DNA of 64,000 nt from positions 63,357 to 127,356 of the forward strand of contig CALGAW010000010.1 of assembly GCA_937959115.1 (NCBI GenBank). The letters are read 5' to 3'. The notes beneath the pieces were generated by a model. That model saw only the letters and a list, made by a program, of their open reading frames with translations, was not told where the DNA came from and did not search any database. Of this stretch, positions 13,986-64,000 are shown piece by piece; the first letter of the stretch is position 1; each line of letters begins with the position of its first letter. Position numbers and translations under genes: made by a program. The stretch is from an uncultured Saprospiraceae bacterium. Its GTDB lineage: Bacteria > Bacteroidota > Bacteroidia > Chitinophagales > Saprospiraceae.

Positions 13986-16900
13986 ATGAAAACTAAACTA
14001 TTTTTCTTGACAGTAATGTGCTATTTAAGCACTTACTCAACAATATCTGCACAAGTGTGTGATTGTAACGTTTCACAAGTAAAAAACAACACTGTCCAAC
14101 CCTGCACAACCACAATTGGAACAGTGGTCAATGTTTCTACTGCAAGTCAATTCAGGCAAGCCATCAATCAAGCAAATGGCAGTGGTGGAAACATGACAAT
14201 ACTAATGGCAGATGGCGTGTACCAGGTCGCAAACCTTAGTTCTTACCCCTACATTACAGCAAGTAACATTGTGATCCGTAGCCAAAGTGGGAACAGAGAT
14301 GCCGTCATTCTAGAAGGAACTGGGATGTTAGATGTCGATCCAGCTACAGTGATCGGATTGAGCTTCCAAGGAAATAATAGCGTAGTTGCGGACTTGACCA
14401 TTCGTAATATGGGCAACCATGCTATTTCAGTTAATGGTGATGAATTGTATGTGCACAACGTCCGATTTGTAGACATCTATCAACAAATGATAAAAGGAAC
14501 AAGTTCGGGAGATGGATCTGATAATGGAAGAATTCAGTGTTCTTTGTTTGAATATACGGGAGGAATCGGCCCCAATTGGTACATTGGAGGAATTGATGTC
14601 CACAAAGGCGATGACTGGATTATCAGAGACAACGTGTTCAGAGATATAGCGTCTCCATCTATCTCAACAGCTGAACATGCAGTACACTTTTGGCGATCAG
14701 GGTCCAACATCACCGTTGAACGAAATGAAATTGTAAACTGTGACCGAGGCATTGGTTTTGGACTTGGAGATGGCCCAGCAAATGGACAAAATGGTGGCAT
14801 TATCCGAAACAACACTATTTATAACAATGGAAACGATCAATTCCACGATGTTGGTATTGGTTTAGAATCTTGTCCGAATACCAAAGTGTATAACAACACA
14901 ATTCACATTGAACATCAAAATGCAATTGAATATAGATGGACAACTACGACAAATGTTGATATTGCAAACAATCTTACGAATAAACCAATCACTTCTCGAA
15001 ATGGAGGAGCTGCAACTGTTTATTCAAATTATGTACAAGCAACTGCTAGCTGGTTTGTCAATCCCGCAATTGGCGATCTAAGGCTTTCTGGAAGCCCTGG
15101 TGCAGTGATAGACCAAGGAACAACACTAGCAGACGTAACGGTTGATTTAGACCAAACAGCACGCCCTAGTGGCGCAGGATATGACCTAGGAGCTTATGAG
15201 GTAGGCAACCAGCCACCTCCACCTTCAACTCCTAATTGTAACTGTACAGTGCAACAAGTAAAAACGAACACAGTACAACCCTGCAACTATACCATCGGCA
15301 CTGTAGTAAATGTTTCTAATGCTGCTCAGTTTAGACAAGCGATCAACCAAGCAAATAGTACTGGAGGAAACATGACGATCCTAATTGCTGATGGGGTGCA
15401 TCGAATTGCTGATGTCAATTCCTATCCTTATGTTACGGCAAGCAACATTGTCATTAGAAGTGCTAGCGGTAATAGAAATGCATGTATCTTAGAAGGCGAT
15501 GGCATGGTGGACAACAATCCAACCACTGTGAACGGGTTTTACTTTGTAGGCGACAACAATGTCGTCGCTGACTTGACCATTCGAAATGTAGGGAATCATG
15601 GCATTCAAACTGATGGTGACTACCTCTATGTCCATAATGTCAGATTTGTTGACCTATATGAGCAAATGATTAAGGGATCAAGTGGTGGCGATGGTTCTGA
15701 TAATGGTCAAGTGCAATGTTCTTTGTTTGAATATACGGCTGGAATTGGCCCGAATTGGTACATTGGAGGAATTGATGTCCATGAAGGAGATAACTGGCTT
15801 ATTCGCGACAATGTATTTAGAGATATTGCTTCTCCTTCCTTTGCAATCGCAGAACACGCTGTTCACTTCTGGCGGACAGGCTCAAACATTACGGTAGAAC
15901 GAAATGAAATTGTAAACTGTGATAGAGGGATTGGCTTTGGACTAGGAAACGATCCTGCAAATGGAATTGTTGGAGGAATTATTCGAAACAATACAATTTA
16001 CAATGAGGGTGTTGATCCTTTCAATGATGTAGGGATCGGTTTAGAGCATTGCCCAGATACAAAAATCTATAACAATACGGTCTTCGTACAAAGTTTCAGA
16101 GCGATCGAGTACCGATTTCCAGCGACAACGAATGTAGACATTGCAAACAACTTGACAAATAAGGTAATTGGACCTAGAGATGGCGGTACCGCAAATGTAT
16201 ATTCCAATAATCAACAAGCACAAGGAAGTTGGTTTGTCGATCTTGCAAATGGCGATTTAAGGCTTTCAGGAAGCCCTACAGCGGTTGTAGACCAAGGCGT
16301 AACACTAGCAGACGTAACGGTTGATTTAGATCAAACACCACGCCCCAATGGTGGCGGGTATGATTTGGGTGCACATGAGACAGGGCAAACAGCAGGACCA
16401 ACTGAAGTTGTATTAAAGGTAGAATTGGAAGGAGCGCTTTTTGCAAACAATCAGTATTTGTTTGAAATGCGAAATGATCTCTTTCTAGCTGGATTACTGC
16501 CTGGACAAGCCCCAGTCTCTCCTACTGTTCCTCCAACACCTCAAGGACATCCATATCAAGGACCACCTTGGAACTATAGCGGTACTGAAGGCGGAAACTG
16601 GACAGATACAGATTATTTATCTATTGCCAACCAGACAGGACAGCAACCAATAGACTGGATTCTGGTTAGTTTTAGAAGTGGCATAGCGAACTCAACAGAA
16701 ATTACTAGAGTAGCGGCTTTACTTTTACAGAATGGAACCGTTTATTTTCCTAGTAAAAGTGTATTTAATCAGCCTTTTTCCGTTCCTGTCTATATCGTAG
16801 TGGAGCATAGAAATCATTTAGCGGTGATGTCTGCTTCAGCAGTTCCTACAGTAAATGGTGTACTAACGCATGATTTCAGCTTAGGCAATAGTTACACGGG

Positions 16901-17144: not shown

Positions 17145-17279
17145 TAGTTTTCATTAATAATGATAGACAATATTAAATTAACGACTAACTTTATGGACGA
17201 TTTCATTTTCAAAAGGGTTCAAAAACAATTAAACAATAATGAAATGAATTCCTGCTTGAACATTAATTTACAGACTATT

Positions 17280-20200
17280 ATGAAAAAAACATTCTTTGTT
17301 TTTATACTAATTGGATTCCTACTCTCAAACGTACTAGGAAATACGGTTACTTATAACGGTACAAATACAATAGTTCCAAATCCAGAAAAAGGATTGTACC
17401 AATATACCGCTGTTTACACTTCTAACTATACGCCATTAACGGTAGCCGAAGTGCAAAGTGCGCGGACGAATAAAGACATTACACTCATCTTTCGATACTT
17501 TATTCTTGATAATTTCAAAACTGGCCCTATTGACAATGCAACACTCAATAAAATTGAGCAGGATTTGCTTGCAATGCGCAATGGTGGAGCAAAAGGGATC
17601 ATTCGATTTTCATACATCAATACTTGGAATGGAAGTTCACAAGGACCATTTGGCGATGCAAGTAAAGCAGTCGTTTTGCAACACATTGACCAGTTGACTC
17701 CAATTCTACAGAATTATAGTGATGTGATTGCTACGTTACAAGCAGGTTTTATCGGTATTTGGGGTGAATGGTTTTATTCTGATTATTTCCAACCAGCTTC
17801 GACAACACAAGGCAGAATTGACCGAAAAGAGGTATTAGATAAGTTGCTAGATGTGATGCCAACAAACAGAATGGTGTCTCACCGATATCCAGAAGGAAAA
17901 GCGCAAATGTATGGGGTTTCAGTTCCTGGAGGTGCTATTGGACTCAGTGATGCTTATAGTGGAAGTGCTCTGAGCAGAATCGCCTTCCATAACGATTGTT
18001 TTCTGGTCTCAGCAAATGACTATACTTACGATAACAATACAAACGGACGAGCATATGCTGCTCAGGAATCAGACTTTTATGTGATGGGAGGCGAGTCGTG
18101 TGGTACGAGTAGCTTCTCCAATTGTACAAACGCGATTAGTGATTTGGAAACTTATAACTGGTCTTATCTCAATGATTATTACCATCCCGCAGTTATGTCA
18201 CAATGGCAAAATGAAGGCTGTTATGATGAAGTGGTTCGTAGATTAGGCTACCGATTTCGCCTAATCAACTCAACCGTTTCACCTTCTGTAGAAACAAGTC
18301 AGAATGTTGACATCACGATTGAAATGGCGAACGATGGCTTTGCACGACCATACAATCCTAGGAATGTGGAGGTCGTTTTCCGAAGCCAAGCTGATCAAAG
18401 TGAGTATACGTTTTCTATTGTCCCCCAAGGACAAGACGCTCGCCTTTTGTTACCAGCACATGGTCTTACAAAGACGTTGACTGCTTCCATTCCCGCTTCA
18501 GGATTACCAGTTGGAGATTATGATCTATTCTTGAATCTTTCAGATCCTGAATCAACCTTAAGCAACAATCCAAACTATAGCATTCGGACTGCAAATACTG
18601 GACTGTGGGAAGGAACTACGGGTTACAATGCTTTGCAAAACCCAGTAACAATAACGCAAGGAGGAAATCCTCAAAACCCAACGGTAACCTACAATGGATC
18701 AAATGCTATCGTACAAAATCCGGAGAAGGGACTGTATCGATATACGGATACGTATGCTTCCAATTACAACCCGCTAACACTTGCTGAAGTACAGTCTATT
18801 AGAAACGAGGATATTACATTAGTATTTAGATACTTTATCCTCGATAACTTTAAAACTGGGCCTATTGACAATGCGACTTTAACTAAGATCGAACAAGATT
18901 TTACAAACATGAGAAATGGTGGGGTAAAAGGCATCATTCGATTTTCATACATTAATACTTGGAATGGAAGCTCTCAAGGCCCGTTTGGTGATGCTAGTAA
19001 AGCAATCGTCTTACAGCATATCGACCAACTGACTCCAATTCTTCAAGCAAACAGTGATGTAATTGCTACATTACAAGCAGGTTTTATTGGTATTTGGGGA
19101 GAATGGTTTTATTCTGATTATTTCCAACCAGCCTCTACTACACAAGGAAGAATCGATCGAAAAGAGGTTTTAGATAAGTTACTAGACATCATGCCGACCA
19201 ACAGAATGGTTTCACACCGTTATCCAGAAGGGAAAGCTCAAATGTATCAATTAACGATTCCTGATGATTCAATCACAATCAATGATGCATATAGTGGTAG
19301 TAATTTGAGTAGAATCGCATTTCATAGTGATTGTTTTCTTGTGTCTGCGAATGACTATACCTTTAGCGACAACGTAAAGGGACGTCAGTACGCAGCTGGA
19401 GAAAGTCAATACTACGTAATGGGTGGTGAGTCTTGCGGAACGAGTAGCTTTTCAAATTGTACAAATGCACTAAGTGATCTGGAAGATTATCATTGGTCTT
19501 ATATCAATGATGGCTACCACCCGGCTGTATTGGCTCAATGGCAAACTGAAGGCTGTTTTGATGAAGTGGTGAGACGATTGGGCTATCGGTTTAGGCTAAT
19601 CAACTCTACCATTACGCAAACCGTATCTGGAAATCAGAACATTGATGTCTCCATAGAAATGGCAAATGATGGCTTTTCTCGCCCTTACAATCCTAGGAAC
19701 GTCAATCTAGTGTTTAGAAGTCAAGCTGACCAGAGTGAGTACTCTTTTTCAATTGTTCCTCAAGGTCAGGACGCTCGGCTATGGTTGCCCGCACATGGTG
19801 TAACAAAGACATTGAGTGCTGCTATTCCTGCTTCTGGATTACCGAATGGAGATTATGATGTATTTTTAAACTTAAACGATCCAGAAACAAGCCTATCCAA
19901 CAACCCTAACTTCAGTATACGTACTGCGAACACTGGGCTTTGGGAGGCATCGACTGGCTACAATGATTTGCAAACAGTTGTGACCGTTTCTGGAGGAGAT
20001 AATCTTGCCGTATCTGCTTGGTTGGAAGGCGCGCTATACGTTAGTAACAATCAGTATGCTACCACAATGCGTACGGACCTTTTTGACGCAGGTCTATTGC
20101 CCGGTCAAACGCCTGCTGGTGGCACGGCAACTCCTGCAGGCCAACCGTACTCAATTGCTCCTTGGAATTATAATGGGACAGAAGGCGCTAACTGGACGGA

Positions 20201-20732
20201 TACCGATTATCAAGCTGTCGTTTCACAAACGGGACAAAAGCCCGTAGACTGGGTGCTAATTAGCTTTAGAACGTCTATTACCAAGGCATCACAGGTTGCA
20301 AAGACCGCAGCACTGCTTATGGAGGATGGAACGGTGTACTTTCCATCACCAGTTACCTTAAATCCACAGACTCCAGTTTACGCACTTATTGAACACCGAA
20401 ATCATTTAGGCGCCTTGAGTGCGACTGCAAATTCACCAGTAAACAATCTGTTGACGTTTGACTTTAGAACTGAAAATGGTTATATGAATGGAGGTTTTAG
20501 CCAAAAGGAGGTATCTACTGGCAGATATGCGCTTTATGGAGGTGACGGTGATCAGTTAACAGACAGTCCTGGCTATGAAATTACAGGGAAGGACCGAATA
20601 CTTTGGAGTCAGAACAATGGGCTGTTTTCTTTGTATGATGCGAGCGACTTTACTATGGACAAAGATATTAGTGGGTTTGATCGGGTTTTCTGGTCCGCGA
20701 ATAACGGTATTTTTTCTAATGTGGAGCGGTAA
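17280..20732 (+). CDS. Secreted protein with two tandem DUF4874/DUF4832-like (putative glycoside-hydrolase-like) domains plus the same shared C-terminal module
   Basis: The likely start is 'MKKTFFVFILIGFLLSNVLG' (signal peptide). The repeats 'VTYNG(T/S)N…NPEKGLY(Q/R)YT…FRYFILDNFKTGPIDNATL…GFIGIWGEWFYSDYFQP' occur twice. The domain-family assignment is from memory and uncertain. Confidence 0.65.
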   Translation: MKKTFFVFILIGFLLSNVLGNTVTYNGTNTIVPNPEKGLYQYTAVYTSNYTPLTVAEVQSARTNKDITLIFRYFILDNFKTGPIDNATLNKIEQDLLAMRNGGAKGIIRFSYINTWNGSSQGPFGDASKAVVLQHIDQLTPILQNYSDVIATLQAGFIGIWGEWFYSDYFQPASTTQGRIDRKEVLDKLLDVMPTNRMVSHRYPEGKAQMYGVSVPGGAIGLSDAYSGSALSRIAFHNDCFLVSANDYTYDNNTNGRAYAAQESDFYVMGGESCGTSSFSNCTNAISDLETYNWSYLNDYYHPAVMSQWQNEGCYDEVVRRLGYRFRLINSTVSPSVETSQNVDITIEMANDGFARPYNPRNVEVVFRSQADQSEYTFSIVPQGQDARLLLPAHGLTKTLTASIPASGLPVGDYDLFLNLSDPESTLSNNPNYSIRTANTGLWEGTTGYNALQNPVTITQGGNPQNPTVTYNGSNAIVQNPEKGLYRYTDTYASNYNPLTLAEVQSIRNEDITLVFRYFILDNFKTGPIDNATLTKIEQDFTNMRNGGVKGIIRFSYINTWNGSSQGPFGDASKAIVLQHIDQLTPILQANSDVIATLQAGFIGIWGEWFYSDYFQPASTTQGRIDRKEVLDKLLDIMPTNRMVSHRYPEGKAQMYQLTIPDDSITINDAYSGSNLSRIAFHSDCFLVSANDYTFSDNVKGRQYAAGESQYYVMGGESCGTSSFSNCTNALSDLEDYHWSYINDGYHPAVLAQWQTEGCFDEVVRRLGYRFRLINSTITQTVSGNQNIDVSIEMANDGFSRPYNPRNVNLVFRSQADQSEYSFSIVPQGQDARLWLPAHGVTKTLSAAIPASGLPNGDYDVFLNLNDPETSLSNNPNFSIRTANTGLWEASTGYNDLQTVVTVSGGDNLAVSAWLEGALYVSNNQYATTMRTDLFDAGLLPGQTPAGGTATPAGQPYSIAPWNYNGTEGANWTDTDYQAVVSQTGQKPVDWVLISFRTSITKASQVAKTAALLMEDGTVYFPSPVTLNPQTPVYALIEHRNHLGALSATANSPVNNLLTFDFRTENGYMNGGFSQKEVSTGRYALYGGDGDQLTDSPGYEITGKDRILWSQNNGLFSLYDASDFTMDKDISGFDRVFWSANNGIFSNVER

Positions 20733-25914: not shown

Positions 25915-26277
25915 TTATTCAGAGTAGTTTACGATTGCTTTAACAACCTTTTTGTTGTCATTAAATATCATTAATTCAGCAGATTTTTTATTTGTTGCTG
26001 TATTTATATAATAGATAGTAATACTATTAACTCCGATTAATACATTAATAATTTCAAAGTGTAAATTAGGGTTTGATTCGAGTCCAATATTCCAATATTT
26101 TCTGACATTATCTTTTCCAATTACGATTCCATTAGTTTCAGGAAGTCTTTTTAAAGCAAGTGGACTCTCAATCGTAAAATCATCAGTATAATGAGATAAT
26201 ATTTTTTCGAGATTATGAGAATTCCAATCTTTTGTCCAATTTTCGGAGAACTGTTTAGCGAAATCTATGGTTATCAT
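25915..26277 (-). CDS. SnoaL-like / NTF2-like small protein
   Basis: 'FAKQFSENWTKDWNSHNLEKILSHYTDDFTIESP' fits the SnoaL fold. The track's N-terminal extension to 26352 is generated by the CATATG inside repeat copy A, so the start is probably the internal Met. Confidence 0.5.
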   Translation of the reverse strand: MITIDFAKQFSENWTKDWNSHNLEKILSHYTDDFTIESPLALKRLPETNGIVIGKDNVRKYWNIGLESNPNLHFEIINVLIGVNSITIYYINTATNKKSAELMIFNDNKKVVKAIVNYSE

Positions 26278-26302
26278 ATTTTGTTGTTTTGAGCTTGTAG
26301 AG

Positions 26303-26363
26303 AACGTTTCGCATATGCGACGGCATAACCGAATGGGAAGGCTGGACGTCATATGCTTTTGTT
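26303..26363. repeat. Direct repeat copy A (~61 bp, internally palindromic: CGCATATGCG … GCATATGCGACG/CGTCATATGC)
   Basis: It is ~87% identical to copy B at 27555-27615 and in the same orientation. It sits 4 nt 3' of the Fic stop codon. Confidence 0.75.
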
Positions 26364-26367
26364 CGCT

Positions 26368-27444
26368 TTAGTCTTCTTTCCTATCCTTATCACTAATCAC
26401 ATAAATTGTTGCCCTTGCTTTTCCAATTCTTTTTACTACTCCTTCATCCGACAAATACTTCATATCCTTTTTTATAGTAGCTGAAGTGTAGTCTGTTATT
26501 GATGTCGTTATATCGCTAATTTTCACCGGTTCATTTTCTTCAATAAATTTCACCAATTCCTTTTGCCTTTCATTCAAGTAACTTTTCTTTTTCTTTATCT
26601 TAGCGTATCTATCCTCCAATTTATTTATCGTTGCTTCCAGTGTTTCTAAAAAAAACAGAATCCATTGATTAATAATTTCTTTCTTCGTTCCCCGATTTTT
26701 CTGAGCACTCATTAGTGCTTTATAGTATTCCTTTTTTTTCTTTTCTATTTCAATTTCCATTGAGGCATATCGCATAAAATCATACCCTTGTTTCAATAGC
26801 AATAAGGTTGTTAATAACCTTGAAAGCCTTCCATTTCCATCTTGATATGGATGGATTGATAAAAATTCATACACGAAAGTTGCAATAATTATTAATGGGT
26901 GTAATTCTTCATTTTCTAAATTCTTGTTTGCCCAACCAATCAAACTTTCCATTTCTCCTTTTACCAAAAAGGGATCAGTTGTATTGAAAATTATTTTTTG
27001 ACGCCCACCAGGATAATTTGCTACTACTTTATTTGATAATTTCTTGTAATTACCTCTATGACTTTCATCTTTTGAACTTACCTGCAATAATGACTTATGA
27101 AGATGATGGATATGATTTTCCTTTAGGTCTATTGCATCATAAGAATCCAAAATTATATTTAGTACCTCATAATATCCAAATACTTCTTGCTCATCTCTTG
27201 TTTTAAATGAAGTAATTTTTACGGCGTTGATCAGATTTTTTACTTCCTCATCAGTTAATGTTGAACCCTCAATTCTTGTTGACGATCCAATGCTTTCAAT
27301 TGTGGCTATTTGCTTTAATTCTTTAAGATAAATCGATTCTTTAACTTCTAGTCCCGTCCATTTCCCTCTAAATGAATCTATAAAGGCTATCTTCCTTATT
27401 ATTTGCTGATTGGTTTTAAAATCGAATGTTAACTTGGATTCCAT
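26368..27444 (-). CDS. Fic family protein (AMPylase), class II with an N-terminal inhibitory helix
   Basis: 'HPYQDGNGRLSRLL' is the Fic motif HPFx(D/E)GNGR. 'SSTRIEGS' matches the (S/T)xxxE(G/N) inhibitory motif. The C-terminus is wHTH-like. The track's TTG start at 27480 lies inside the upstream tandem repeats, so ATG 27444 is preferred. Confidence 0.8.
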   Translation of the reverse strand: MESKLTFDFKTNQQIIRKIAFIDSFRGKWTGLEVKESIYLKELKQIATIESIGSSTRIEGSTLTDEEVKNLINAVKITSFKTRDEQEVFGYYEVLNIILDSYDAIDLKENHIHHLHKSLLQVSSKDESHRGNYKKLSNKVVANYPGGRQKIIFNTTDPFLVKGEMESLIGWANKNLENEELHPLIIIATFVYEFLSIHPYQDGNGRLSRLLTTLLLLKQGYDFMRYASMEIEIEKKKKEYYKALMSAQKNRGTKKEIINQWILFFLETLEATINKLEDRYAKIKKKKSYLNERQKELVKFIEENEPVKISDITTSITDYTSATIKKDMKYLSDEGVVKRIGKARATIYVISDKDRKED

Positions 27445-27461
27445 TACAAAATATTTGATAT

Positions 27462-27528
27462 TTATCTGATTTTTATCCAAAAATAAACTTAATTATTGAA
27501 TTATCTGATTCTTATCCGATTTTTATCC
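27462..27528. repeat. Short tandem direct repeats TTATCTGATT(T/C)TTATCC / GATTTTTATCC (three or four units) upstream of Fic
   Basis: Units lie at 27462-27478, 27501-27517 and 27518-27528, with a degenerate fourth unit. Confidence 0.5.
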
Positions 27529-27554
27529 GATTATTTTTCTTATAGATTGAAGGC

Positions 27555-27615
27555 AACGGTTCGCATATGCGCCTGCCTGACCGAATGGGAGGGTTGGACG
27601 TCATATGCTTTTGTT
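27555..27615. repeat. Direct repeat copy B (~61 bp); it supplies the last four codons and the stop of the pAgo-associated gene
   Basis: The reverse complement of 27601-27615 is 'AACAAAAGCATATGA', encoding N-K-S-I-stop. Confidence 0.75.
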
Positions 27616-28758
27616 AGGTGGAGTTTTTCTCATGTTTAAAAATAGGTGATAAACTTCTATTGGCATCTGGTTGTAAAGAAAAGTTCCTATTGCAATTTTA
27701 ATGTTAGTGAATATTGGAAAATTTGCCGTACTATCGATAATGAGCTTTTCTTGAAATTCTGAAGAATAGTCAAACTCTTGTATGAACGTTAAATATCTTT
27801 GCCAAATGTCATTGAAATTTGAATTGTTTACATATACTACTGCATAGTTTCTTGATAGACCATTTGGGTCATAGTTGAGAGTCAATTTATTTAAGTGCTT
27901 AGATATATATTCTGTTTTAATAGATGATATTACAAAAGCTTCGATTATCGAAAGAGGATATTTTTCTTCTTTTGTAAATACTTTTAAATCCAATTCACCA
28001 AAAGTATTACCTGTACCAGAAACTCCTCTTTGACTTTGATTCTCTACAGTAAAATTCATTGACAGCATTGAGTGTAAAACACTATTGTATTGATCTTCAT
28101 TATTATTAAATAGTCTGTGTTTACTTTGAATTTCTCTTGTTGAAAAAAGGACTGCTTCTAATAATTCTTTCTTATCTTTTTCATATTGAAGAACTTGATT
28201 ATTCTTGAATTCAAGAAGCAACAGTAAGTGTATAATGTCATCTAAATCAAAATTGGCAGGGTATTGCAAGTCATTATAGCTATCCTTTAAGAATCTCTTT
28301 TTTAGAAGTTTGGTTTCGAAGTTCTCTTTGTTGTTGCCAGAAAGATCCTGAATAAATTGACTTTCATATTCGGAAAATATTTTCGAAATGAGAAATTTTA
28401 CTCTTATTGATTTATGTTCAAACCATTCATTGATTAACGACTGATATCTAAAATCATTTTCATTTTTGAACAATAGAGATATACCTATGATATGGAAAAC
28501 AGAAATTGACTTTTTAATGATAGGGTTACTCAGTTGGCTATATATTTCATCAAACTTAATTTCAGGAGAATTAATGCTTAAAAAACCATAAGCGGCTGAC
28601 TTTTCCAAAAAGCCTTCAAAAGAATCGATAATTGACTCAATTTGAGAATTGTCAATTATTTGTGAAATATATTGAAAGCATAAACCTCCTAAGTCAAAGT
28701 GGTTACTATACCGTGCTTGAAGTTCTGATATTTTGGAAGCCAAATTCATAGAAACCAT
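27601..28758 (-). CDS. pAgo-associated protein of unknown fold (candidate effector), translationally coupled to the upstream Argonaute
   Basis: It overlaps the pAgo gene by 13 nt and shares its strand and AT-rich composition. I recognise no SIR2, TIR or TM signature. A weak 'ELDLKVFTKEEK' stretch could be a PD-(D/E)xK-like element. Confidence 0.6.
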   Translation of the reverse strand: MVSMNLASKISELQARYSNHFDLGGLCFQYISQIIDNSQIESIIDSFEGFLEKSAAYGFLSINSPEIKFDEIYSQLSNPIIKKSISVFHIIGISLLFKNENDFRYQSLINEWFEHKSIRVKFLISKIFSEYESQFIQDLSGNNKENFETKLLKKRFLKDSYNDLQYPANFDLDDIIHLLLLLEFKNNQVLQYEKDKKELLEAVLFSTREIQSKHRLFNNNEDQYNSVLHSMLSMNFTVENQSQRGVSGTGNTFGELDLKVFTKEEKYPLSIIEAFVISSIKTEYISKHLNKLTLNYDPNGLSRNYAVVYVNNSNFNDIWQRYLTFIQEFDYSSEFQEKLIIDSTANFPIFTNIKIAIGTFLYNQMPIEVYHLFLNMRKTPPNKSI

Positions 28759-30797
28759 GGTGAATTGTCGGGCATTGAAATTTGGGACATGTAAAAGCCA
28801 TCGACTAGTTTTAGTTTACTACTCATTCGAGCCATTAATTTTGAATACTTTATACTTATTGGCGAAGCCTGCTTATTAAAACTCGAATGAGACAAGTTTG
28901 AAAAATCATAAACTTGTTTTGCTAGGTATTCCATATTTATAACATTAGATCTTCTATCAATTTCTATTTTGCAACAAGTTGAACTGTTCTTTCTTAGTGC
29001 TATAAAGGACAATACCTCATTCACATTTATATATGTACCTCTTGGTAAATCAACTAATATGGTCGATTCTTGATCAGTATTTTTTTTATATTTATTAAAT
29101 CTAAAATTATGTCCGTCGCCCACATAGACAAAAGAATATTTAAATTCAATTCCCTTAAAACCTTCGATCACACTATTCAATGCTTCTATTTCATTACTGT
29201 AACCTGGTTTCTTGAATAAATGAAAGACTAAATAGACCGCCTTAGAAGAATCTAAAATTTTAGCTTCTAGGCAATTGTTTATATTTTTTGTTAAAACAGT
29301 GTATAAATGCTTGTTATAATCTTCAACACTAGTTACAGCAGCTACATCTCCTACAAGATATTTTCCATCACCCCTAAATACGGAAGTCATTCCTATTTGA
29401 GGAATGCCTTCTTTGTCTGTTGTCGCCCCAACTCCAATGACAAGTTCATTTCGATGTTCTCCTTTTGGCTTTACAGTCCAAGCAGCCCCGCCTAATTTGG
29501 CATAAATATTTAGAGATATAGTGTGATCAGCATAATTAGTAAAACCAGATTTGTGATCTGCAATGAACTTGTTAATTTGTTGGATTTGGACTTCTTGACT
29601 ATTAATACCTCTTTTGATGAATTCAGCTTTACAAAAGTAATATGGTGATTCGTGTATAGGTAGTAATTCATGTATCTCATCAACTACAACAATCGCAAGA
29701 TCTATATCTTTCGCATTTTGAAGAATTTCTTGATAGGATTTTAAATTAGAATCTTCAATTGGAAAAGTTTCGTATTTAAAGTTTTCTTTTGGGATTCTGT
29801 AAATAGTGCAGAGTTCTTCCTGTATAGCCTTAGTGAAAGTCGCTATTTTTAGATGGTGCTCTTTAGGGAAAACCACTCCAATGGTAATATCTTTGTTTTC
29901 AAAATTATCATAAGTTGTAGGCTTGTTATATTTTATTTTACTTCGCATTGCATACTTTACAGTATTTGCAGGTGGGGTTGCATTGCGATAAAAATAATAT
30001 TTGGGATCTTCCAATTTTTCAAAACAACTTTTGTGAATTACGCTGGATTTTTTTTGAAAATCGGATTTTACAATTTTTTCAATTTTACAGCTTCCTGGTA
30101 GTTTGAAATCTGCTTTATTGGGATTGAAAAATTCTTTCACAAAAGCTTTGCAGCAAGTTATTTGAATACTTTCTTCAGTTAGCTTCTCAATTGATTTTTT
30201 TAATTTGCTAGAGTCCCCATATAAGTTGCTTATTTTATAAATGGCAGTTGAGTCAGCTCTAACTTTTCCGTTATCTAGGATTGTTAGGTTGTCAGTAGAT
30301 AGATCATTGTCATTAAATTCCTCAAGTCCCCAAGTTATCTGATGGCTGATTCCAGAGGTAATATTGAAGCCATACTTTAGTTCGTTATTAATTATTAACG
30401 AACTGAATGTTAGGTTGTAGCTTCTGTATGTGTTCAGATATGGAAAATCATTGTTTGAGATATCTACGCGATAATCAGTGATTCTAATTAGTCCAAACGA
30501 TTTTGTTATGAATAATTTTGGTTCAGAATAAAACTGATTCAACATTGATTCTGAAATGATTTTAGAAATTAGAAAGTCGTCAACACCTTTTTTAATATTT
30601 TGAGTAACTACTCTGTCAAAAGCTATGTTGCCCCATATGTAAACTTTATCTCTAAATCTCAAAAAGGTTGAGTTGTTATATTTATCTCTGAATGATTTTA
30701 GATTTTCAGGATTTCTATATTCGATTGACTGGATATCAAATGCTGAATGAGATAACTCAATTTCATGCCAGTTACTTCTTATCAATTCCTTAATCAT
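28746..30797 (-). CDS. Prokaryotic Argonaute, catalytically inactive (long-B-like) with MID and degenerate PIWI domains
   Basis: The PIWI architecture is conserved: '…ISLNIYAKLGGAAWTV' (KLGG), 'ELVIGVGATTD' (in place of IGxDVxH, first Asp to Gly), 'VYLVFHLFKK' (RDG to HLF) and 'FVYVGDGHNFRF' (in place of the QKRHHTR element). The MID domain reads 'SPYYFCKAEFIKRGINSQEV…NKF', a Y-K-Q-K-type 5'-phosphate pocket. Confidence 0.8.
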   Translation of the reverse strand: MIKELIRSNWHEIELSHSAFDIQSIEYRNPENLKSFRDKYNNSTFLRFRDKVYIWGNIAFDRVVTQNIKKGVDDFLISKIISESMLNQFYSEPKLFITKSFGLIRITDYRVDISNNDFPYLNTYRSYNLTFSSLIINNELKYGFNITSGISHQITWGLEEFNDNDLSTDNLTILDNGKVRADSTAIYKISNLYGDSSKLKKSIEKLTEESIQITCCKAFVKEFFNPNKADFKLPGSCKIEKIVKSDFQKKSSVIHKSCFEKLEDPKYYFYRNATPPANTVKYAMRSKIKYNKPTTYDNFENKDITIGVVFPKEHHLKIATFTKAIQEELCTIYRIPKENFKYETFPIEDSNLKSYQEILQNAKDIDLAIVVVDEIHELLPIHESPYYFCKAEFIKRGINSQEVQIQQINKFIADHKSGFTNYADHTISLNIYAKLGGAAWTVKPKGEHRNELVIGVGATTDKEGIPQIGMTSVFRGDGKYLVGDVAAVTSVEDYNKHLYTVLTKNINNCLEAKILDSSKAVYLVFHLFKKPGYSNEIEALNSVIEGFKGIEFKYSFVYVGDGHNFRFNKYKKNTDQESTILVDLPRGTYINVNEVLSFIALRKNSSTCCKIEIDRRSNVINMEYLAKQVYDFSNLSHSSFNKQASPISIKYSKLMARMSSKLKLVDGFYMSQISMPDNSPWFL

Positions 30798-31180
30798 TCT
30801 TTTATTTTAATACTGACTAACGTAAGAAAATTATATTGATTTTCAATAAATTATACAATGAAAATTATCACAAATTTCGATTCGTTAGCGTTGTAGGTTT
30901 ACTTCCAAAATACTATCTGCTCAAATTTACTAGCATTTTAAAAGTGAATTTGAGGGATTGGATTTGGGAAGGCCGTTGAATTCCACCTAACATCTATATA
31001 AACGCGACTTTCATACCTCAATCACGTATATATTACTAATGTTCGCACCAAATTACAACTTTTTATCATTACCTCCTAAGAACGTTCTGCACGATAAGCC
31101 ATGCACAACAAATGAATTTAACGCATGATAGTTCTCTAACTTTTGGTAAAATTACTGCAATGCTACCTTTTCATTCAGTA

Positions 31181-31217
31181 ACAAAAAAGTCCACAGCAGT
31201 ATAAGCAACTGTGGACT
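31181..31217 (-). terminator. Rho-independent terminator for the flotillin operon (GTCCACAG…CTGTGGAC followed by a T-run on the minus strand)
   Basis: An inverted repeat at 31187-31216 is followed by TTTTTT when read on the minus strand. Confidence 0.5.
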
Positions 31218-31282
31218 CGTATGTTTTAAACCTAGGACGGATCAGAGCAATTCTTCGTTAAAAAACGCGCTGGCACGAATCC

Positions 31283-32719
31283 TTACGCTGGTTCTTCATT
31301 TTCATTCTTAGAAGTTTTGCCATTCGTCTGTTGATTACCATTTAGTTTCAACTGGTCTTCAGCTCGTTTTACTAAACTGTTTGGCAGATTCATACCACTT
31401 TGATTTAAGAAGTCATTGAGTTGTGGCATCATCCCGTACAACCCTTGCACGAAGTTACCCACGCCTTGTCCGTTCCCACTGTCGTAGACGACTACTTTGT
31501 CGATTTCAAGGTCTTTGATCGCGCCGGTTTGGATTTTAGCCATTTCGGTCAGCTTATCAATCATTAGGAATCCGATTGCACTTTGCGCATCACCGCCAGC
31601 AGCACGAACTAATTTGTCAAAACCTTCTGCCTGTCTAGTCAAGAGTTCTTCACGTCCTTTTGCTTGAGCCATTAGTTTGGAAAGGATGGCATCTGCTTCC
31701 CCTTTTGCAATTTCTCTTTGTCTTTCTGCTTCTGCTTGCGCGGCAATGACTGCTTTCTGTTTTTCGATGTCGGCAGTGACAACGATATCGGCTTCCATTT
31801 TTGCTTTTTCCATGGCAGCTCTTGCCTCTTCAGAAGACTTCTCTGCTAGGTAAGCCTCTTCTAACGCTTTTGCTGCGGCTACTTTCTGCGCAGCAGTTGC
31901 GCGTCTTGTGGCTTCTGCCATTTCGATATCTCTTTGGGCATCAGAGTTGGCAATTTTAATCGCAGAGGTGTTTTTTCCTTCTGTTGCTGCTGCTTCAGCA
32001 ACGGCTTCACCGATTTCGGCTCTACTGTTTGCGTCAGAAACCTTAATTCGTTGTTCTTGTTTTGCTTCTGCTTGTCCAACAGCACCATATCGTTCTTCAC
32101 CTGCTACCTTCACTCGAGCATCGTTGATCGCTTTCGCAGCAGCTTCTTTACCAAGTGCTTGGATATAGCCAGATTCATCGTGAATATCAGTCACGTTTAC
32201 GTTGATTAACTCTAGACCGATTTTGTGTAATTCTTCTCCTACATTCTCATAAACTGACTTTACAAACTTATCTCTGTCCGTGTTAAGCTCCTCAATGTCC
32301 ATATTAGCGATTACGAGACGCATTTGTCCCATTATGATGTCATGTGCTAGAGAACTGATATCTGGTCGCTGAAGGCCTAGTAAACGCTCTGCAGCGGCAA
32401 CCATAAACTTAGAGTCATTGGAAATACCGACTGTAAACTGAGCGGGTACAGAAACCCGGATGTTTTGCTTTGATAGAGCGTCCTGCAGGTTTACGTCAAT
32501 AGATAGCGGTGTCAAATCTAGGTAACGATAGTCTTGGATCACAGGCCATACAAACGCAGCACCACCGGCGTAACACTTAGCAGAACTGCCGCCTCCTGTT
32601 TTACCGTAGACCACTAGAATTTGATCTGAGGGACATCTTCGATATCTACTAATGAAGAACATGAGCATTAGCAAAACGACAAGGACAATTGCTCCAATAA
32701 GGATAAGAATTGAATTCAT
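31283..32719 (-). CDS. Flotillin-like SPFH/band-7 protein (YqiK/FloA-like)
   Basis: An N-terminal TM segment, an SPFH domain and a long Ala/Glu/Lys-rich coiled coil ('EAERQREIAKGEADAIL'). Confidence 0.85.
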   Translation of the reverse strand: MNSILILIGAIVLVVLLMLMFFISRYRRCPSDQILVVYGKTGGGSSAKCYAGGAAFVWPVIQDYRYLDLTPLSIDVNLQDALSKQNIRVSVPAQFTVGISNDSKFMVAAAERLLGLQRPDISSLAHDIIMGQMRLVIANMDIEELNTDRDKFVKSVYENVGEELHKIGLELINVNVTDIHDESGYIQALGKEAAAKAINDARVKVAGEERYGAVGQAEAKQEQRIKVSDANSRAEIGEAVAEAAATEGKNTSAIKIANSDAQRDIEMAEATRRATAAQKVAAAKALEEAYLAEKSSEEARAAMEKAKMEADIVVTADIEKQKAVIAAQAEAERQREIAKGEADAILSKLMAQAKGREELLTRQAEGFDKLVRAAGGDAQSAIGFLMIDKLTEMAKIQTGAIKDLEIDKVVVYDSGNGQGVGNFVQGLYGMMPQLNDFLNQSGMNLPNSLVKRAEDQLKLNGNQQTNGKTSKNENEEPA

Positions 32720-32745
32720 AATGTTAAGTTTTATTATTGTTAAAT

Positions 32746-33276
32746 TTAATTTTTAAGTTTTGAAACAGTAGCCATTCCATCTACTACATCATCAATCACC
32801 ACAAGCATCCCAGTAGGAATTTCTTCCTGATTTGTTGTTATCGCCTTTATTTCTCTATACACTCCGTTGATATCCACCTTTATAACACCATAGCCAGCAT
32901 CCGCAGGAATTTTCAAATAAACTTTCGCTTCTTTAGCGATCGCATCTTCTGCTTGCCAATTGACATTCTCTTGATTTTTCAACAACAATTTCAGCATTAG
33001 ATTGAGCAAAAAGACGGCAATTATACCCGCTACAATCCCAATACTAAATGCGTATACTGGGTTTTTATCAAATTCTAAGATGATTTTTATCACCCAAGAT
33101 CCAACGGAAATAAAAGTCAGTATTCCTTTGATAATGCCTGCGTCACCCCCTCCATCTACATCCACATCGGCTCCAATATCAATATCGAGATCAAGTCCTC
33201 CAAGAATGGATAGCAACAAAAGAAAAACGAGTATTCCTCCACAAATAATGGAGATCCAGGTGAGTATAGCAATCAT
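32746..33276 (-). CDS. NfeD/YqiJ-like membrane protein, the usual partner of flotillin
   Basis: N-terminal TM helices and a C-terminal OB-fold-like region ('VYREIKAITTNQEEIPTGMLVVIDDVVDGMATV'). It lies immediately upstream of the flotillin gene. Confidence 0.7.
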   Translation of the reverse strand: MIAILTWISIICGGILVFLLLLSILGGLDLDIDIGADVDVDGGGDAGIIKGILTFISVGSWVIKIILEFDKNPVYAFSIGIVAGIIAVFLLNLMLKLLLKNQENVNWQAEDAIAKEAKVYLKIPADAGYGVIKVDINGVYREIKAITTNQEEIPTGMLVVIDDVVDGMATVSKLKN

Positions 33277-33968: not shown

Positions 33969-35435
33969 CTACCATTTAATAAACTTACCTGAATATTGCG
34001 TTTCATCAAACATTAAAGAATAAAAATAGACACCTTTCTGTAAGTCACTAACCAATAGCTTATTATTGGTCAACAACTCAACCTTAACCAACCGTCCGAT
34101 TTCGTCATAAACAAGTACATTTACACTGGAACGCTCAGATTCTAATCCAAATGACAAGTAATCGACTACAGGATTTGGGAAGATCAACAGGGAAGGATCT
34201 CGAATTTCAGATGTCTTAAAATAAGGCGAATAAACATATGTACTTTGCTCTACAACATTCATTGACTCCATCTCCAACCGTTCCACTGTTTCTGTTGCGA
34301 TCTTATTTCTATAAGGTGAGATTAAATCAGCAGTATTTACTTCATCATAGGTCCATGTTGTTCGATCTGTTGTTTCCCAAACATCGTAAGTAGAATTAGA
34401 AAAAGCACTACTTAGCAGCCTGTTTTCTTCATCATATTCATACACACGTCTATTCCCATTTATAAACTCATTGGTTCCTTCTGCCCATACAAAATAGGAA
34501 GAAACAGAAGTTTGATATCCGTCCGCATTGTAGGTGAATTCAATTTTATGACTTGGATTCCAAATTAGCTTTGCATGATCATAATGATACCACATTGAAA
34601 GAAGTTGATTTCCATCTAGATCAAAGGTATAAATTTGTCTGGTGTTAAACTCCCAGTTTGAATCTAGTTCATTCCATCTATAGGAGAGCAATTGTATAAT
34701 ATTTCCAGCAGAATCTAGATTGTACATTTTTTTCTCTGCCTTCAACCACTCATCAGTTTGCCTGTCCCAATTGTAGTTAACAGATTCAGTTAATTTTCCA
34801 TCATTATTATAGGAATACTCATCCTTCCATTTATTGTAAAATTGCAGATCGTAAGCATCCTGAGCCTTCGTTACCAGTTTAATCAATTTATCCTCTGAAG
34901 AATAATAATGTTGTATCTTGTTAATATAATTCCAACTCCGCGAAAGTGTATCAAACGAGCTATAATATACTAGCTCATCAAGTAAATCGTTGGTGGTATA
35001 GTTTTTTGTCGTTTTAACGATTGGATCGTATCTTCCATTACTATATTTTCCGCTTTCATAAAGCGTTTGCCTATCCTTTAGATCATATTGATAAATACTT
35101 TCTTGCTCTGGGAAAAAACGATCTGTCCAATCATTGTAAAACCCAATCGTTTTCTTTGTTAGTTTGTGGTTTGAATTATAATCATAAAGTATTTTCTCTC
35201 TACTTAACGAATTATTGTACTTTTCAATCACCATTCCTTCTGAGTTATAAGTATAGGTGATCGTTGCTTCAGAGCAAAACCCATCTACAAAACATTCCTT
35301 ACCAGCCGGTTGTCCATAAGAATATATCGTTTCTATTTGATCCAATCGTTGTTGAAACGAAGTATGAAATTGTGCTAGAACGAATTCTGGAAGAAAAATG
35401 AGAATGGTAATGACCACTAGGATTAGCCTTTTCAT
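33969..35435 (-). CDS. Secreted repeat protein with a T9SS type A C-terminal sorting domain
   Basis: A signal peptide is present ('MKRLILVVITILIFLPEFVLAQ'). The C-terminus is 'IFPNPVVDYLSFGLESERSSVNVLVYDEIGRLV…GVYFYSLMFDETQYSGKFIKW'. Confidence 0.7.
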   Translation of the reverse strand: MKRLILVVITILIFLPEFVLAQFHTSFQQRLDQIETIYSYGQPAGKECFVDGFCSEATITYTYNSEGMVIEKYNNSLSREKILYDYNSNHKLTKKTIGFYNDWTDRFFPEQESIYQYDLKDRQTLYESGKYSNGRYDPIVKTTKNYTTNDLLDELVYYSSFDTLSRSWNYINKIQHYYSSEDKLIKLVTKAQDAYDLQFYNKWKDEYSYNNDGKLTESVNYNWDRQTDEWLKAEKKMYNLDSAGNIIQLLSYRWNELDSNWEFNTRQIYTFDLDGNQLLSMWYHYDHAKLIWNPSHKIEFTYNADGYQTSVSSYFVWAEGTNEFINGNRRVYEYDEENRLLSSAFSNSTYDVWETTDRTTWTYDEVNTADLISPYRNKIATETVERLEMESMNVVEQSTYVYSPYFKTSEIRDPSLLIFPNPVVDYLSFGLESERSSVNVLVYDEIGRLVKVELLTNNKLLVSDLQKGVYFYSLMFDETQYSGKFIKW

Positions 35436-35572
35436 TGAAATTGCTTTATTCAGGTTTATAAATCTTACTAAATGGTCTTCGATAAGATACAAATCTTCAA
35501 ATAATAAGCCAAAAATCTTAACCAATTTAACAAGTATCGGAAAATCTCATTTGATTTTTCTAACTTCATTCC

Positions 35573-61716: not shown

Positions 61717-64000
61717 ATGACTAAGAACTTACTCATTGTTGAGTCTCCTGCGAAGGCAAAGACTATTGAAAAATATCTCGGAAAGAACTTTTTTGTTAAA
61801 TCCAGCTACGGCCATATTAGGGATTTATCAAAGGAAAAAATGGGAGTAGAAATTGATAATAATTTCTTGCCCAACTATGTTATTTCTAAAGATAAATCAA
61901 AAGTTGTTAAAGAATTAAAGGAATCCGTAAAGAAAGCTACAGAAGTCTGGCTCGCAACGGATGAAGACCGCGAAGGAGAAGCTATATCTTGGCACTTGTG
62001 CAAAGTTCTTGGCCTAGATGAAAATTCTACGAAGCGGATCGTCTTTAGAGAAATCACAAAACCAGCACTCGAATCAGCCATTAACAATCCAAGAACAGTT
62101 GACATTAACCTAGTCAATGCACAACAAGCAAGAAGAGTGCTTGACCGATTAGTAGGTTTTGAGCTTTCTGGATTGCTTTGGAAAAAAGTAAAAGGAAAAC
62201 TCTCTGCAGGTCGTGTGCAATCAGTCGCCGTAAAACTAATTGTAGATCGGGAACGAGCAATCAACAAATTCGAACCAGAAATCTTTTATAAGGTAATTGC
62301 ATTATTTAATGTTGAAAACCGAGCTGGTAAAATGGTGGAGCTTAAAGCTGATTTGAAAGAACGCTTTAAGTCACAAAAAGAAGCCACCGATTTCCTCAAC
62401 AATTGTATTGGCGGAACATTCTCTATCAATAATATCCAGGTAAAACCGTTGAAACGGAACCCTGCCCCACCGTTCACGACATCAACGTTACAACAAGAAG
62501 CAAGTAGAAAGCTTGGTTTTTCAGTAAAACGAACAATGTCAAACGCTCAACGCTTATATGAGCAAGGACATATCTCTTATATGAGAACGGATTCAGTCAA
62601 TCTTAGTGAAACATCCAGAGCCGCTATTGGTAAGACCATCGTAGGCAACTACGGTGAAAACTACTTACACCCTAGAACATTTAAAGGAAAATCACAGAAT
62701 GCCCAAGAGGCGCACGAAGCCATTCGCCCTACTGATCCTGCAAAGTTTAATGTAACACAAGACAGAGACCAGCAAAGACTATATGAGTTGATCTGGAAAC
62801 GGACAGTCGCTACACAGATGGCCCAAGCTCAATTGGAAAAAACAACCGTAAGCATCGGTGTATCTACAATTGATACCGCAAATTTTGTTGCCATTGGTGA
62901 GGTATTGAAATTCGACGGGTTCCTTAAGGTTTATATGGAATCTATTGATGATGAAGACACAGAAGGAGAAGCAAAGGGGATCTTACCTCCGTTATCTGTA
63001 GGACAGAAACTACAGGAAAAAGTAGTTACAGCCACTGAGCGGTTTACCAAGGCATCACCAAGATATTCAGAAGCAAGTCTTGTAAAGAAAATGGAAGAGT
63101 TAGGGATTGGACGACCATCAACTTATGCCCCTACCATCAGTAAGATTACGGAAGAGACTAGAGGTTATATCACAAAAGAAAGCAAAGAAGGTGTAGAACG
63201 TGAATATAATGTAATCAATCTCATTGATGGCGTAGTAGAGACATCAAAAGCAACAGAAAAAACTGGAGCAGAAAAGAGTAAACTATTCCCGAATGATATT
63301 GGTATCTTAGTCAGTGATTTTCTTTCTGACAACTTCGAAAACATAATGGATTATAAGTTCACTGCTGAAATCGAAGCTGAGTTTGATCAGATTGCAGAAG
63401 GTAAAGTGAAATGGGAAGAAATGCTAGAGCGGTTCTACTCTCCGTTTCATGATACAGTGGAGCAAACACTAGAAACAGCAGAACGTGTAACAGGAGAGCG
63501 TAAACTAGGGAAAGATCCTGAAACTGGATTGACACTCCTAGTAAGAATGTCTCGGTTTGGCCCTGTGGCTCAAATTGGTGCATCTGATGAATTGAAAGAA
63601 GATGAAAAACCCAAATACGCTAACCTCAAACCTGGGATGTCTTTAGAACACGTCACTTACGAGGAAGCTATTGAACTGTTTAAATTACCCAGGGAGCTAG
63701 GTGCTTATGAGAACCATCCCGTTACGATTGGAGCTGGACGTTGGGGTCCGTACATCAAGTACAATGAAAAATTTATCTCAATCCCTAGAACACAAGATCC
63801 ACTTGAAATCACCAAAGAGGAAGCTATTGAGTTGATTGAAGAAAAGAAAAGAGCGGATGCACCGTTTGGACAATTTGAAGGTCATGACATGGTAAGAGGT
63901 AAAGGTAGATTTGGCCCTTTTATTAAATGGAATGGCATCTTTATTAATATTCCTAGAAAATACGATCCTGAAAATCTTTCTATTGACGATGCTTATGAGT
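61717..64000 (+). CDS. topA: DNA topoisomerase I (N-terminal ~760 aa; the gene continues beyond the window)
   Basis: 'MTKNLLIVESPAKAKTIEKYLGKNFFVKSSYGHIRDL' is the Toprim domain. Further on come '…LDRLVGFELSGLLWKK' and '…QRLYEQGHISYMRTDS', the active-site tyrosine region. The frame is open to the window end, which is why the ORF track does not list it. Confidence 0.9.
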   Translation, partial: MTKNLLIVESPAKAKTIEKYLGKNFFVKSSYGHIRDLSKEKMGVEIDNNFLPNYVISKDKSKVVKELKESVKKATEVWLATDEDREGEAISWHLCKVLGLDENSTKRIVFREITKPALESAINNPRTVDINLVNAQQARRVLDRLVGFELSGLLWKKVKGKLSAGRVQSVAVKLIVDRERAINKFEPEIFYKVIALFNVENRAGKMVELKADLKERFKSQKEATDFLNNCIGGTFSINNIQVKPLKRNPAPPFTTSTLQQEASRKLGFSVKRTMSNAQRLYEQGHISYMRTDSVNLSETSRAAIGKTIVGNYGENYLHPRTFKGKSQNAQEAHEAIRPTDPAKFNVTQDRDQQRLYELIWKRTVATQMAQAQLEKTTVSIGVSTIDTANFVAIGEVLKFDGFLKVYMESIDDEDTEGEAKGILPPLSVGQKLQEKVVTATERFTKASPRYSEASLVKKMEELGIGRPSTYAPTISKITEETRGYITKESKEGVEREYNVINLIDGVVETSKATEKTGAEKSKLFPNDIGILVSDFLSDNFENIMDYKFTAEIEAEFDQIAEGKVKWEEMLERFYSPFHDTVEQTLETAERVTGERKLGKDPETGLTLLVRMSRFGPVAQIGASDELKEDEKPKYANLKPGMSLEHVTYEEAIELFKLPRELGAYENHPVTIGAGRWGPYIKYNEKFISIPRTQDPLEITKEEAIELIEEKKRADAPFGQFEGHDMVRGKGRFGPFIKWNGIFINIPRKYDPENLSIDDAYE

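Follow-up and report, generated by a model that had tools for sequence, protein, structure and literature searches.

A candidate nuclease-fold effector paired with a predicted inactive long-B Argonaute in an uncultured Saprospiraceae bacterium

What is the role of an unannotated open reading frame (ORF) that begins inside the stop region of an apparently inactive prokaryotic Argonaute (pAgo) gene? The question is raised by contig CALGAW010000010.1 of an uncultured Saprospiraceae bacterium (assembly GCA_937959115.1), of which we analyzed the 64,000 nucleotides (nt) between positions 63,357 and 127,356; this stretch is referred to here as the window, and coordinates are window positions unless a different locus is named. 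On the minus strand, a long-B-type pAgo gene (28746..30797, 683 aa) is followed by an ORF with an ATG start (27601..28758, 385 aa), which an earlier reading of the DNA letters, here called the original prediction, had put forward as a candidate new effector. Long-B pAgos are the least understood group of Argonautes. Three effector classes have been characterized for them, the nuclease bAgaN, SIR2 and a membrane protein, and we know of a structure for only one of the corresponding systems, BPAN. Our reading, to which we assign a probability of roughly 60%, is that the product of the ORF (hereafter the effector) would be the DNA-degrading, abortive-infection half of a BPAN-like long-B pAgo module.

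The two genes are joined stop to start. The pAgo C-terminus reads ...PWFL, and at the junction ccATGgtttctATGA (28746..28758, minus strand) the pAgo W-F-L-stop codons overlap two candidate start codons of the effector, at offsets of -13 and -4 (ATGA). The longest ORF overlaps the pAgo stop by 13 nt, whereas the ATG of M4 (28747-28749) gives the 4-nt overlap and a protein of 382 aa. Among ten related loci, the offset was -13 in two, -4 in three, -1 in three, +1 in one and +8 in one, and the -13 ATG was present solely where the pAgo proline codon is CCA, that is, in the window and in locus L003. Because of these junction offsets, and because the identical protein carries 382 aa in the public annotation, M4 (28749) is the more likely start. 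The 13-nt overlap of the original prediction thus holds for the longest ORF, with 4 nt being the likelier figure, and the coupling it described is tight whichever start applies. All pAgos of the clade finish W-F-(L/I/V)-stop (window and L002-L019 junctions), and the start codon of the partner is made from the last pAgo codon plus TGA, in ATGA or TGATG forms. The 'MV(S/F)' N-termini in the window and L003 are a by-product of the CCA-TGG codons of the pAgo. The C-terminal carboxylate of the pAgo is functionally important in Argonautes.

Searching for relatives of the effector in a collection of 5.8 billion proteins gave a full-length family of 25 proteins. Twenty loci were obtained from GTDB genome and JGI metagenome scans, together with an identical contig (L001), and 19 loci had enough upstream DNA to be checked. 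A relative of the window pAgo was found directly upstream in 19/19 of these. In the reverse direction, four pAgos of the same clade were picked independently of the effector, and each was followed by a family member overlapping its stop (4/4; in one of the four, the effector is cut by the contig end). Overall, the order is pAgo, then effector, in 23/23 checkable loci, as expected from the operon layout that had been proposed, and the suggested co-occurrence check on homologues gave the same result, with the full-length ones lying 3' of an inactive pAgo throughout. When the flanking ORFs of 13 loci were compared all against all, the pAgo and the effector were conserved and no third gene was. 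The pairwise identities of the two proteins are correlated (Pearson 0.95, Spearman 0.71, over 45 non-independent pairs). The loci that come from genomes have hosts among the Bacteroidota (Flavobacteriia, Saprospiraceae and Hymenobacter, among others), the Chloroflexota and the Planctomycetota, from which we conclude that the module moves horizontally as one unit. The closest named relative of the pair is carried by Aquimarina litoralis. In a Lewinellaceae metagenome-assembled genome, a frameshift close to codon 110 breaks the effector homologue (locus L004, 7977-9109) into a pair of ORFs, which points to either a pseudogene or an assembly error.

We conclude, with high confidence, that the effector is a dedicated partner of the pAgo. 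That the adjacency is incidental, or that the ORF is not a real gene, is very improbable. Nothing speaks for this beyond the missing annotation of the effector, and it is contradicted by the 23/23 pairing across Bacteroidota, Chloroflexota and Planctomycetota, the conserved stop-start coupling, the confident fold prediction described below and the strong purifying conservation of the effector family, which has 31 invariant columns.

The pAgo gene product matched the PADLOC pAgo model PDLC02395 over its full length (E=2.4e-125) and pAgo_II at 1.5e-75. Among solved structures, its best relative was EcAgo (23wq; 2.5e-28), followed by the 5awh and 6d8a-series Argonaute chains (~1.5e-19). In E. coli, EcAgo serves as the long-B pAgo of BPAN, and its tetrad positions are G492/E532/Q568/D700 (PMC13535254). 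In one pairwise alignment to EcAgo, the DEDX positions of the window protein were G457/E492/F528/K653. Because the tetrad reads G/E/F/K, the protein is predicted to be catalytically dead and unable to slice. A full-length Argonaute with a substituted DEDX tetrad that is kin to the RsAgo/EcAgo type corresponds to a long-B pAgo. The original description of a 385-aa ORF coupled to an inactive pAgo is therefore confirmed by the coordinates, the shared minus strand, the PADLOC match and the tetrad. In a by-eye alignment, the Tyr and Lys of the MID pocket are kept (PYYFCK, compared to PYYLGK in EcAgo), as is the C-terminal WFL, such that the features for guide binding appear to be preserved.

Sequence searches with the effector itself were negative. 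Pfam gave nothing below E=0.2, PADLOC and NCBIfam gave no match, and a sequence search of the PDB gave nothing at E<=10. The sole PDB profile match, to the helical repeats of Elongator Elp1 (E=0.002), was of a low-complexity helical nature and was set aside. The statement in the original prediction that no signature of a known partner is present was borne out for SIR2, TIR, Mrr/DUF4365, HNH, bAgaN and bAgaM, and its statement that transmembrane helices are absent agrees with our failure to predict any transmembrane segment (maximum 19-residue Kyte-Doolittle mean of 1.53). No match to a housekeeping enzyme, which had been named as the kind of result that would tell against a new effector, was obtained.

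The predicted structure was more informative. An AlphaFold2 model built on the family alignment (predicted local distance difference test (pLDDT) 85.9, predicted template modeling score (pTM) 0.76) contains helices at residues 6-156, a long connecting helix at 175-213, and an alpha-beta-beta-beta-alpha-beta unit with further strands. The protein can be divided accordingly into an N-terminal all-helical domain (residues ~4-190; 28189..28749, minus strand; pLDDT mostly >85) and a C-terminal domain (residues ~191-376; 27631..28188, minus strand) that is the predicted nuclease cassette. In the model, the latter has the alpha-beta-beta-beta-alpha-beta order of the PD-(D/E)xK core, and we consider it quite likely that this domain has a restriction-endonuclease fold. 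Foldseek, which had been recommended as a check on an AlphaFold model, did place restriction and defense nucleases at the top (BstEII, EcoT38I, Can2 and EndoMS), although the matches were weak. The closest structural matches of the C-terminal domain were active DNases, including a CdiA toxin, and were of the BamHI/BglII-like kind.

Conservation was evaluated over 126 distant C-terminal domains and the 25 family members, with residue numbers referring to the 385-aa ORF. The predicted active site spans E221 through K291 (27886..28098, minus strand) and includes E221 (codon 28096-28098; 97% of the distant domains), D257 (27988-27990; 100%), E273 (27940-27942; 100%), H288 (27895-27897; 100%) and K291 (27886-27888; 97%), all on the minus strand and all invariant in the 25 members of the pAgo-linked family. 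Six further residues, Y296, D297, G300, Y309, Y322 and H371, are each conserved in 94-99% of the distant domains. D257, in the sequence G-E-L-D, opens the second core strand (256-262), where the Asp of a PD-(D/E)xK enzyme is expected, and is invariant in both sets (25/25 and 126/126). E273 ('IIEAF') lies in the middle of the third core strand and is also invariant; position 275 is a Phe in the effector and variable across the family. As judged from the model, D257 and E273 occupy the canonical PD and (D/E)xK acid positions. H288-x-x-K291 sits in the helix following the third strand, and we propose that K291 may stand in for the canonical (D/E)xK lysine.

The tentative PD-(D/E)xK core of the original prediction was thus half right: the Asp of 'ELDL' is the invariant D257, while 'EEK' (residues 264-266) falls in a variable, unconserved loop between strands, with E273 as the conserved third-strand acid. 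Mapping of the catalytic residues onto BamHI by profile-sequence alignment had no success, the hhalign result not being significant.

The N-terminal domain of the effector is faster-evolving, with 23-47% identity compared to 40-65% for the C-terminal domain. When the family profile was run exhaustively with HMMER against 1.84 billion cluster representatives, 1,074 matches were obtained at E<=1e-3, of which 812 reached E<=1e-10. Among the best 150 of the 1,074 cluster representatives, about ten matched over the full length of the profile. The remaining ones matched at profile positions ~190-373, nearly always at the extreme C-terminus of proteins of 200-1,450 aa, and proteins that do not belong to the pAgo-linked family reached E values as low as 1e-50. 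The N-terminal domain thus seems confined to the pAgo-linked family. Some non-pAgo proteins do align to the profile from position 50-100 on, but with low posterior support there, and a shared helical region is therefore not claimed here.

The C-terminal domain has no Pfam or NCBIfam model, and lenient Pfam scans of 23 near-standalone copies gave no consistent family; the nuclease-like matches in this set were one to CdiA_C and one to HSDR_N_2, with no others. It is, however, already contained within a PADLOC LmuA model. Pfam annotation of 71 longer proteins that carry the domain revealed Roc-COR in 22, leucine-rich repeats in 24 and the N-domain of a Cap17-like CBASS sensor in 2. It was also found in single examples of an EruA-like NACHT protein, a GNAT fusion, and a protein with an HSDR_N_2 domain plus a predicted pPIWI-associating nuclease domain. 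The Lamassu LmuA protein P0177, encoded after LmuC and LmuB (PADLOC 3e-69), likewise ends in this domain. Because it terminates Roc-COR, NACHT, LmuA and Cap17-like proteins, the C-terminal domain is a widely reused output module of immune proteins, rather than a pAgo-specific one, and the N-terminal domain and the pairing are what is specific to the pAgo. The notion of a new effector family is to be narrowed in the same way: the protein belongs to no known partner family and is dedicated to its pAgo, but its C-terminal domain is widespread and has been captured in an LmuA model. The Lamassu-type locus of P0177, L029 (3252-7692), has the order LmuC-LmuB-LmuA, and the effector-type domain is at the C-terminus of its 563-aa LmuA. 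In the Lamassu literature, LmuA effector domains are N-terminal.

The closest precedent for such a two-domain partner is BPAN, in which the partner has ~390 aa and its N-terminal domain restrains a C-terminal PD-(D/E)xK domain that by itself is toxic (PMC10620215, PMC13535254). In EcBPAN, a loop of the N-terminal domain docks at the MID-PIWI interface of target-bound EcAgo (PMC13535254). In the nearest outgroup clades of the window pAgo (28-32% and ~25% identity), the pAgo is followed by 344-438-aa proteins with Pfam PF18742, which match EcbAgaN (PDB 23wq) at 3e-28 and 2e-9 and carry RxDL...IEVK. The effector could thus be a highly diverged bAgaN (og_15, BPAN), with an eroded docking domain and a nuclease domain that was diverged or swapped. 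It does resemble bAgaN in its place as the second of two operon genes, directly after an inactive long-B pAgo, in size (382-385 compared to 390 aa), in its two-domain plan and in the fold superfamily of its C-terminal domain.

Sequence homology to bAgaN was not detected. A 3-sequence bAgaN profile gave 82% probability on the N-terminal 135 residues of the effector, but this fell to 1.9% in hhalign with a 62-sequence profile, which picks the same region, including a G..E/R..VA..GF-like stretch, so that N-terminal homology is unproven. The hhalign probabilities were 0.05% for EcbAgaN and 0.12% for the membrane partner EabAgaM, and a Pfam scan of the effector gave no match to PF18742. The RxDL...IEVK motif is absent as well: EcbAgaN has the catalytic residues D298, E309 and K311 (PMC13535254) in its D...E-V-K motif, and the effector reads G-E-L-D257 ... 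I-I-E273-A-F. Furthermore, its C-terminal domain is homologous to the other large family described above, so at best the N-terminal domain would be shared. Descent from bAgaN is therefore an unlikely account, and the most economical view of the evolution is that a BPAN-like pAgo lineage exchanged its effector for another.

By analogy with BPAN, we picture the module as follows. The pAgo, as the predicted sensor subunit, is expected to load short RNA guides, as EcAgo and RsAgo do, and the guide-loaded, dead protein would recognize the DNA of an invading plasmid or phage. The private N-terminal domain of the effector, as a pAgo-docking or autoinhibitory module, would dock on the target-bound pAgo and keep the enzyme in check. 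The C-terminal domain, once released or assembled, would degrade nucleic acid, most likely DNA, in a non-specific manner, and the infected cell would die or enter dormancy.

Several observations weigh against this scheme. The canonical (D/E)xK lysine is missing from the effector, and the catalytic assignment of K291 and H288 is our own. The pAgo-linked subfamily departs from the wider family in that D240 has mostly become N and R362 has become Y or N, and in the window copy the well-conserved K251 is also N; these changes could mean altered or reduced activity. For the C-terminal domain family as a whole, nuclease activity is what we infer, and the role of the N-terminal domain is drawn by analogy, no homology to the N-terminal domain of bAgaN having been demonstrated. 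Some pAgo partners are reportedly guide-generating nucleases, as in the case of an RNase-associated pAgo. The partner in the window could, along such lines, be no toxic nuclease at all. It would then be an accessory that binds nucleic acids or processes guides, or else an enzyme with a different substrate, and would aid guide loading or target repression without killing the cell. The missing lysine and the three changed positions would fit this role, and RsAgo-type long-B pAgos were first described as repressors of plasmid expression (summarized in PMC10620215). Nevertheless, E221, D257, E273, H288 and K291 are all kept and invariant, the domain takes the output place in Roc-COR, Cap17-like-sensor and LmuA proteins, which as a rule carry toxic effectors there, and active DNases, the CdiA toxin among them, are its closest structural matches. 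We consider a non-toxic accessory improbable, and favor the DNA-degrading effector.

A dead long-B pAgo with a nuclease-fold effector is a known kind of system. Song et al. 2023 reported a minority of long-B pAgos with 'other' partners, and Ryazansky et al. 2018 mentioned orthogroups from pAgo operons (og_257, og_603) that are 'without known domains' but have predicted PD-(D/E)xK motifs; the effector family may have been glimpsed among the latter. Our literature search found no paper naming such a pAgo partner, nor anything specific on the nuclease domain of bacterial Roco proteins. Neither the effector family nor its link to Lamassu, Roco, NACHT and CBASS-type proteins seems to have been described before. 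A bolder proposal, which we hold tentatively and at slightly less than even odds, is that the pair represents an unnamed class of long-B pAgo systems. Its effector would join an Argonaute-adaptor domain that is new, and not related to its bAgaN counterpart, to a member of a large, uncurated clade of restriction-endonuclease fold in which the catalytic lysine has moved (E-D-E-HxxK). Members of this clade would be exchanged as 'death cassettes' among five or more types of immune architecture, namely pAgo, Lamassu, Roc-COR GTPases, NACHT NTPases and CBASS-type sensors.

If this is a further partner family with an N-terminal domain of its own, effector exchange on long-B pAgos reaches beyond the three known classes. 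The pair would then also allow a second, independent look at the way in which a dead Argonaute, once bound to its target, activates a nuclease. The system is compact (two genes, ~3.2 kb) and the family is small, which makes it easy to test. The C-terminal domain, present in more than 1,000 sequence clusters, may be of greater importance than the link to the pAgo, and a single biochemical characterization of it would annotate many predicted defense proteins together.

Directly downstream of the pair in the window is a Fic/DOC gene with a C-terminal winged-helix domain (26368-27480, minus strand; PADLOC SoFic 3.8e-45). It is absent from every other family locus and was rejected as a third component; it is a second, independent defense-type gene in the same spot. 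Two copies of a 61-nt repeat in direct orientation bracket it, copy A (26303..26363) just 3' of the Fic gene and copy B (27555..27615) at the end of the effector gene, with extended similarity between 26271-26375 and 27523-27627. These are two matches in the window, compared to 0 expected by chance, and no third copy or upstream copy was found. Each copy folds into an imperfect hairpin, GCAUAUG(A)CG...CGCAUAUGC, with AAC...GUU flanks and a bulged base. That the repeats are attC-like is a lead only.

The original prediction had noted that the repeat supplies the 3' end of the effector gene, and indeed copy B provides the codons N382-K-S-I and the TGA stop. In the closest relative (L034, a 73% identical protein), the coding match, over the stretch compared, extends to ...CCACCTAAC and divergence begins from the first base of copy B; downstream of that effector, an IS91-type transposase fragment is found in place of Fic. 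Because the homology to L034 is lost precisely where copy B starts, a repeat-bounded Fic cassette is suggested to have been inserted downstream of the effector. On the far side of copy A, the first ~25 codons (MTSSLPIRLCRRICETFSTSSKQQN) of a SnoaL-like ORF (25915-26352, minus strand) read through the repeat, and translation of this ORF probably begins with the Met of MITIDF, near 26277.

Upstream of the pAgo, a flotillin-like SPFH/Band 7 gene and a small membrane protein gene (31283-33276, minus strand) are ended by a hairpin followed by a T-run (CCACAG...CTGTGGACTTTTTTGTT; 31180-31225, minus strand), and therefore the pAgo operon probably has its own promoter in the ~380-nt spacer. No Rfam family was found in the region. 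The type IX secretion sorting domain (Por_Secre_tail) of a protein encoded at 33969-35525 (minus strand) marks the host as Bacteroidota, in line with the occurrence of the closest named relative of the pAgo pair in Aquimarina litoralis. Elsewhere in the window, long internal direct repeats occur at 14058-16384 and 17475-19208 (69-85% identity, with periods of 1179 and 1335 nt). Those at 17475-19208 fall within the gene of a 1190-aa DUF4832/DUF4874 protein (17160-20732), which therefore contains a tandem domain duplication.

Among the known systems, the pair in the window is most like BPAN. Both are two-gene operons in which an inactive long-B pAgo comes first and the partner overlaps its stop, and in both the partner (382-385 compared to ~390 aa) combines an N-terminal non-catalytic domain with a C-terminal domain of predicted or known PD-(D/E)xK fold. 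The window pAgo is also kin to EcAgo (2.5e-28), and its sister clades carry bAgaN. Unlike in BPAN, neither domain of the partner shows a sequence relationship to bAgaN that we could detect, and an E...D...E...HxxK arrangement replaces the D-EVK motif. The C-terminal domain comes from another large family, and is structurally BamHI/BglII-like rather than a member of the DpnII-MboI Pfam family. BPAN is furthermore an 8:8 assembly that depends on RNA guides, whereas our picture of the window pair comes from its sequence and a predicted model.

With Lamassu LmuA (PADLOC PDLC03853 type), the effector shares a homologous C-terminal domain (the family profile matches P0177 at 3e-31) and the same invariant residues. 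LmuA differs in its N-terminal region (~350 aa) and acts together with LmuC and the SMC-like LmuB; neither LmuB nor LmuC was called next to the effector in the window or the other loci examined, and the window effector reaches no PADLOC LmuA model. From the restriction enzymes BamHI, BglII, BstYI and OkrAI, and from CdiA-CT (EC869), the effector is set apart by low identity (6-10%, with hhalign not significant), by the lack of a methyltransferase partner and by its added N-terminal domain, and it is probably non-specific rather than site-specific, unlike the restriction enzymes. Finally, BPAS (bAgaS, SIR2) and BPAM (bAgaM, membrane) differ in their effectors, since the window protein has neither a SIR2 match nor a transmembrane segment, but all of these systems have the same operon logic and, presumably, the same abortive-infection strategy.

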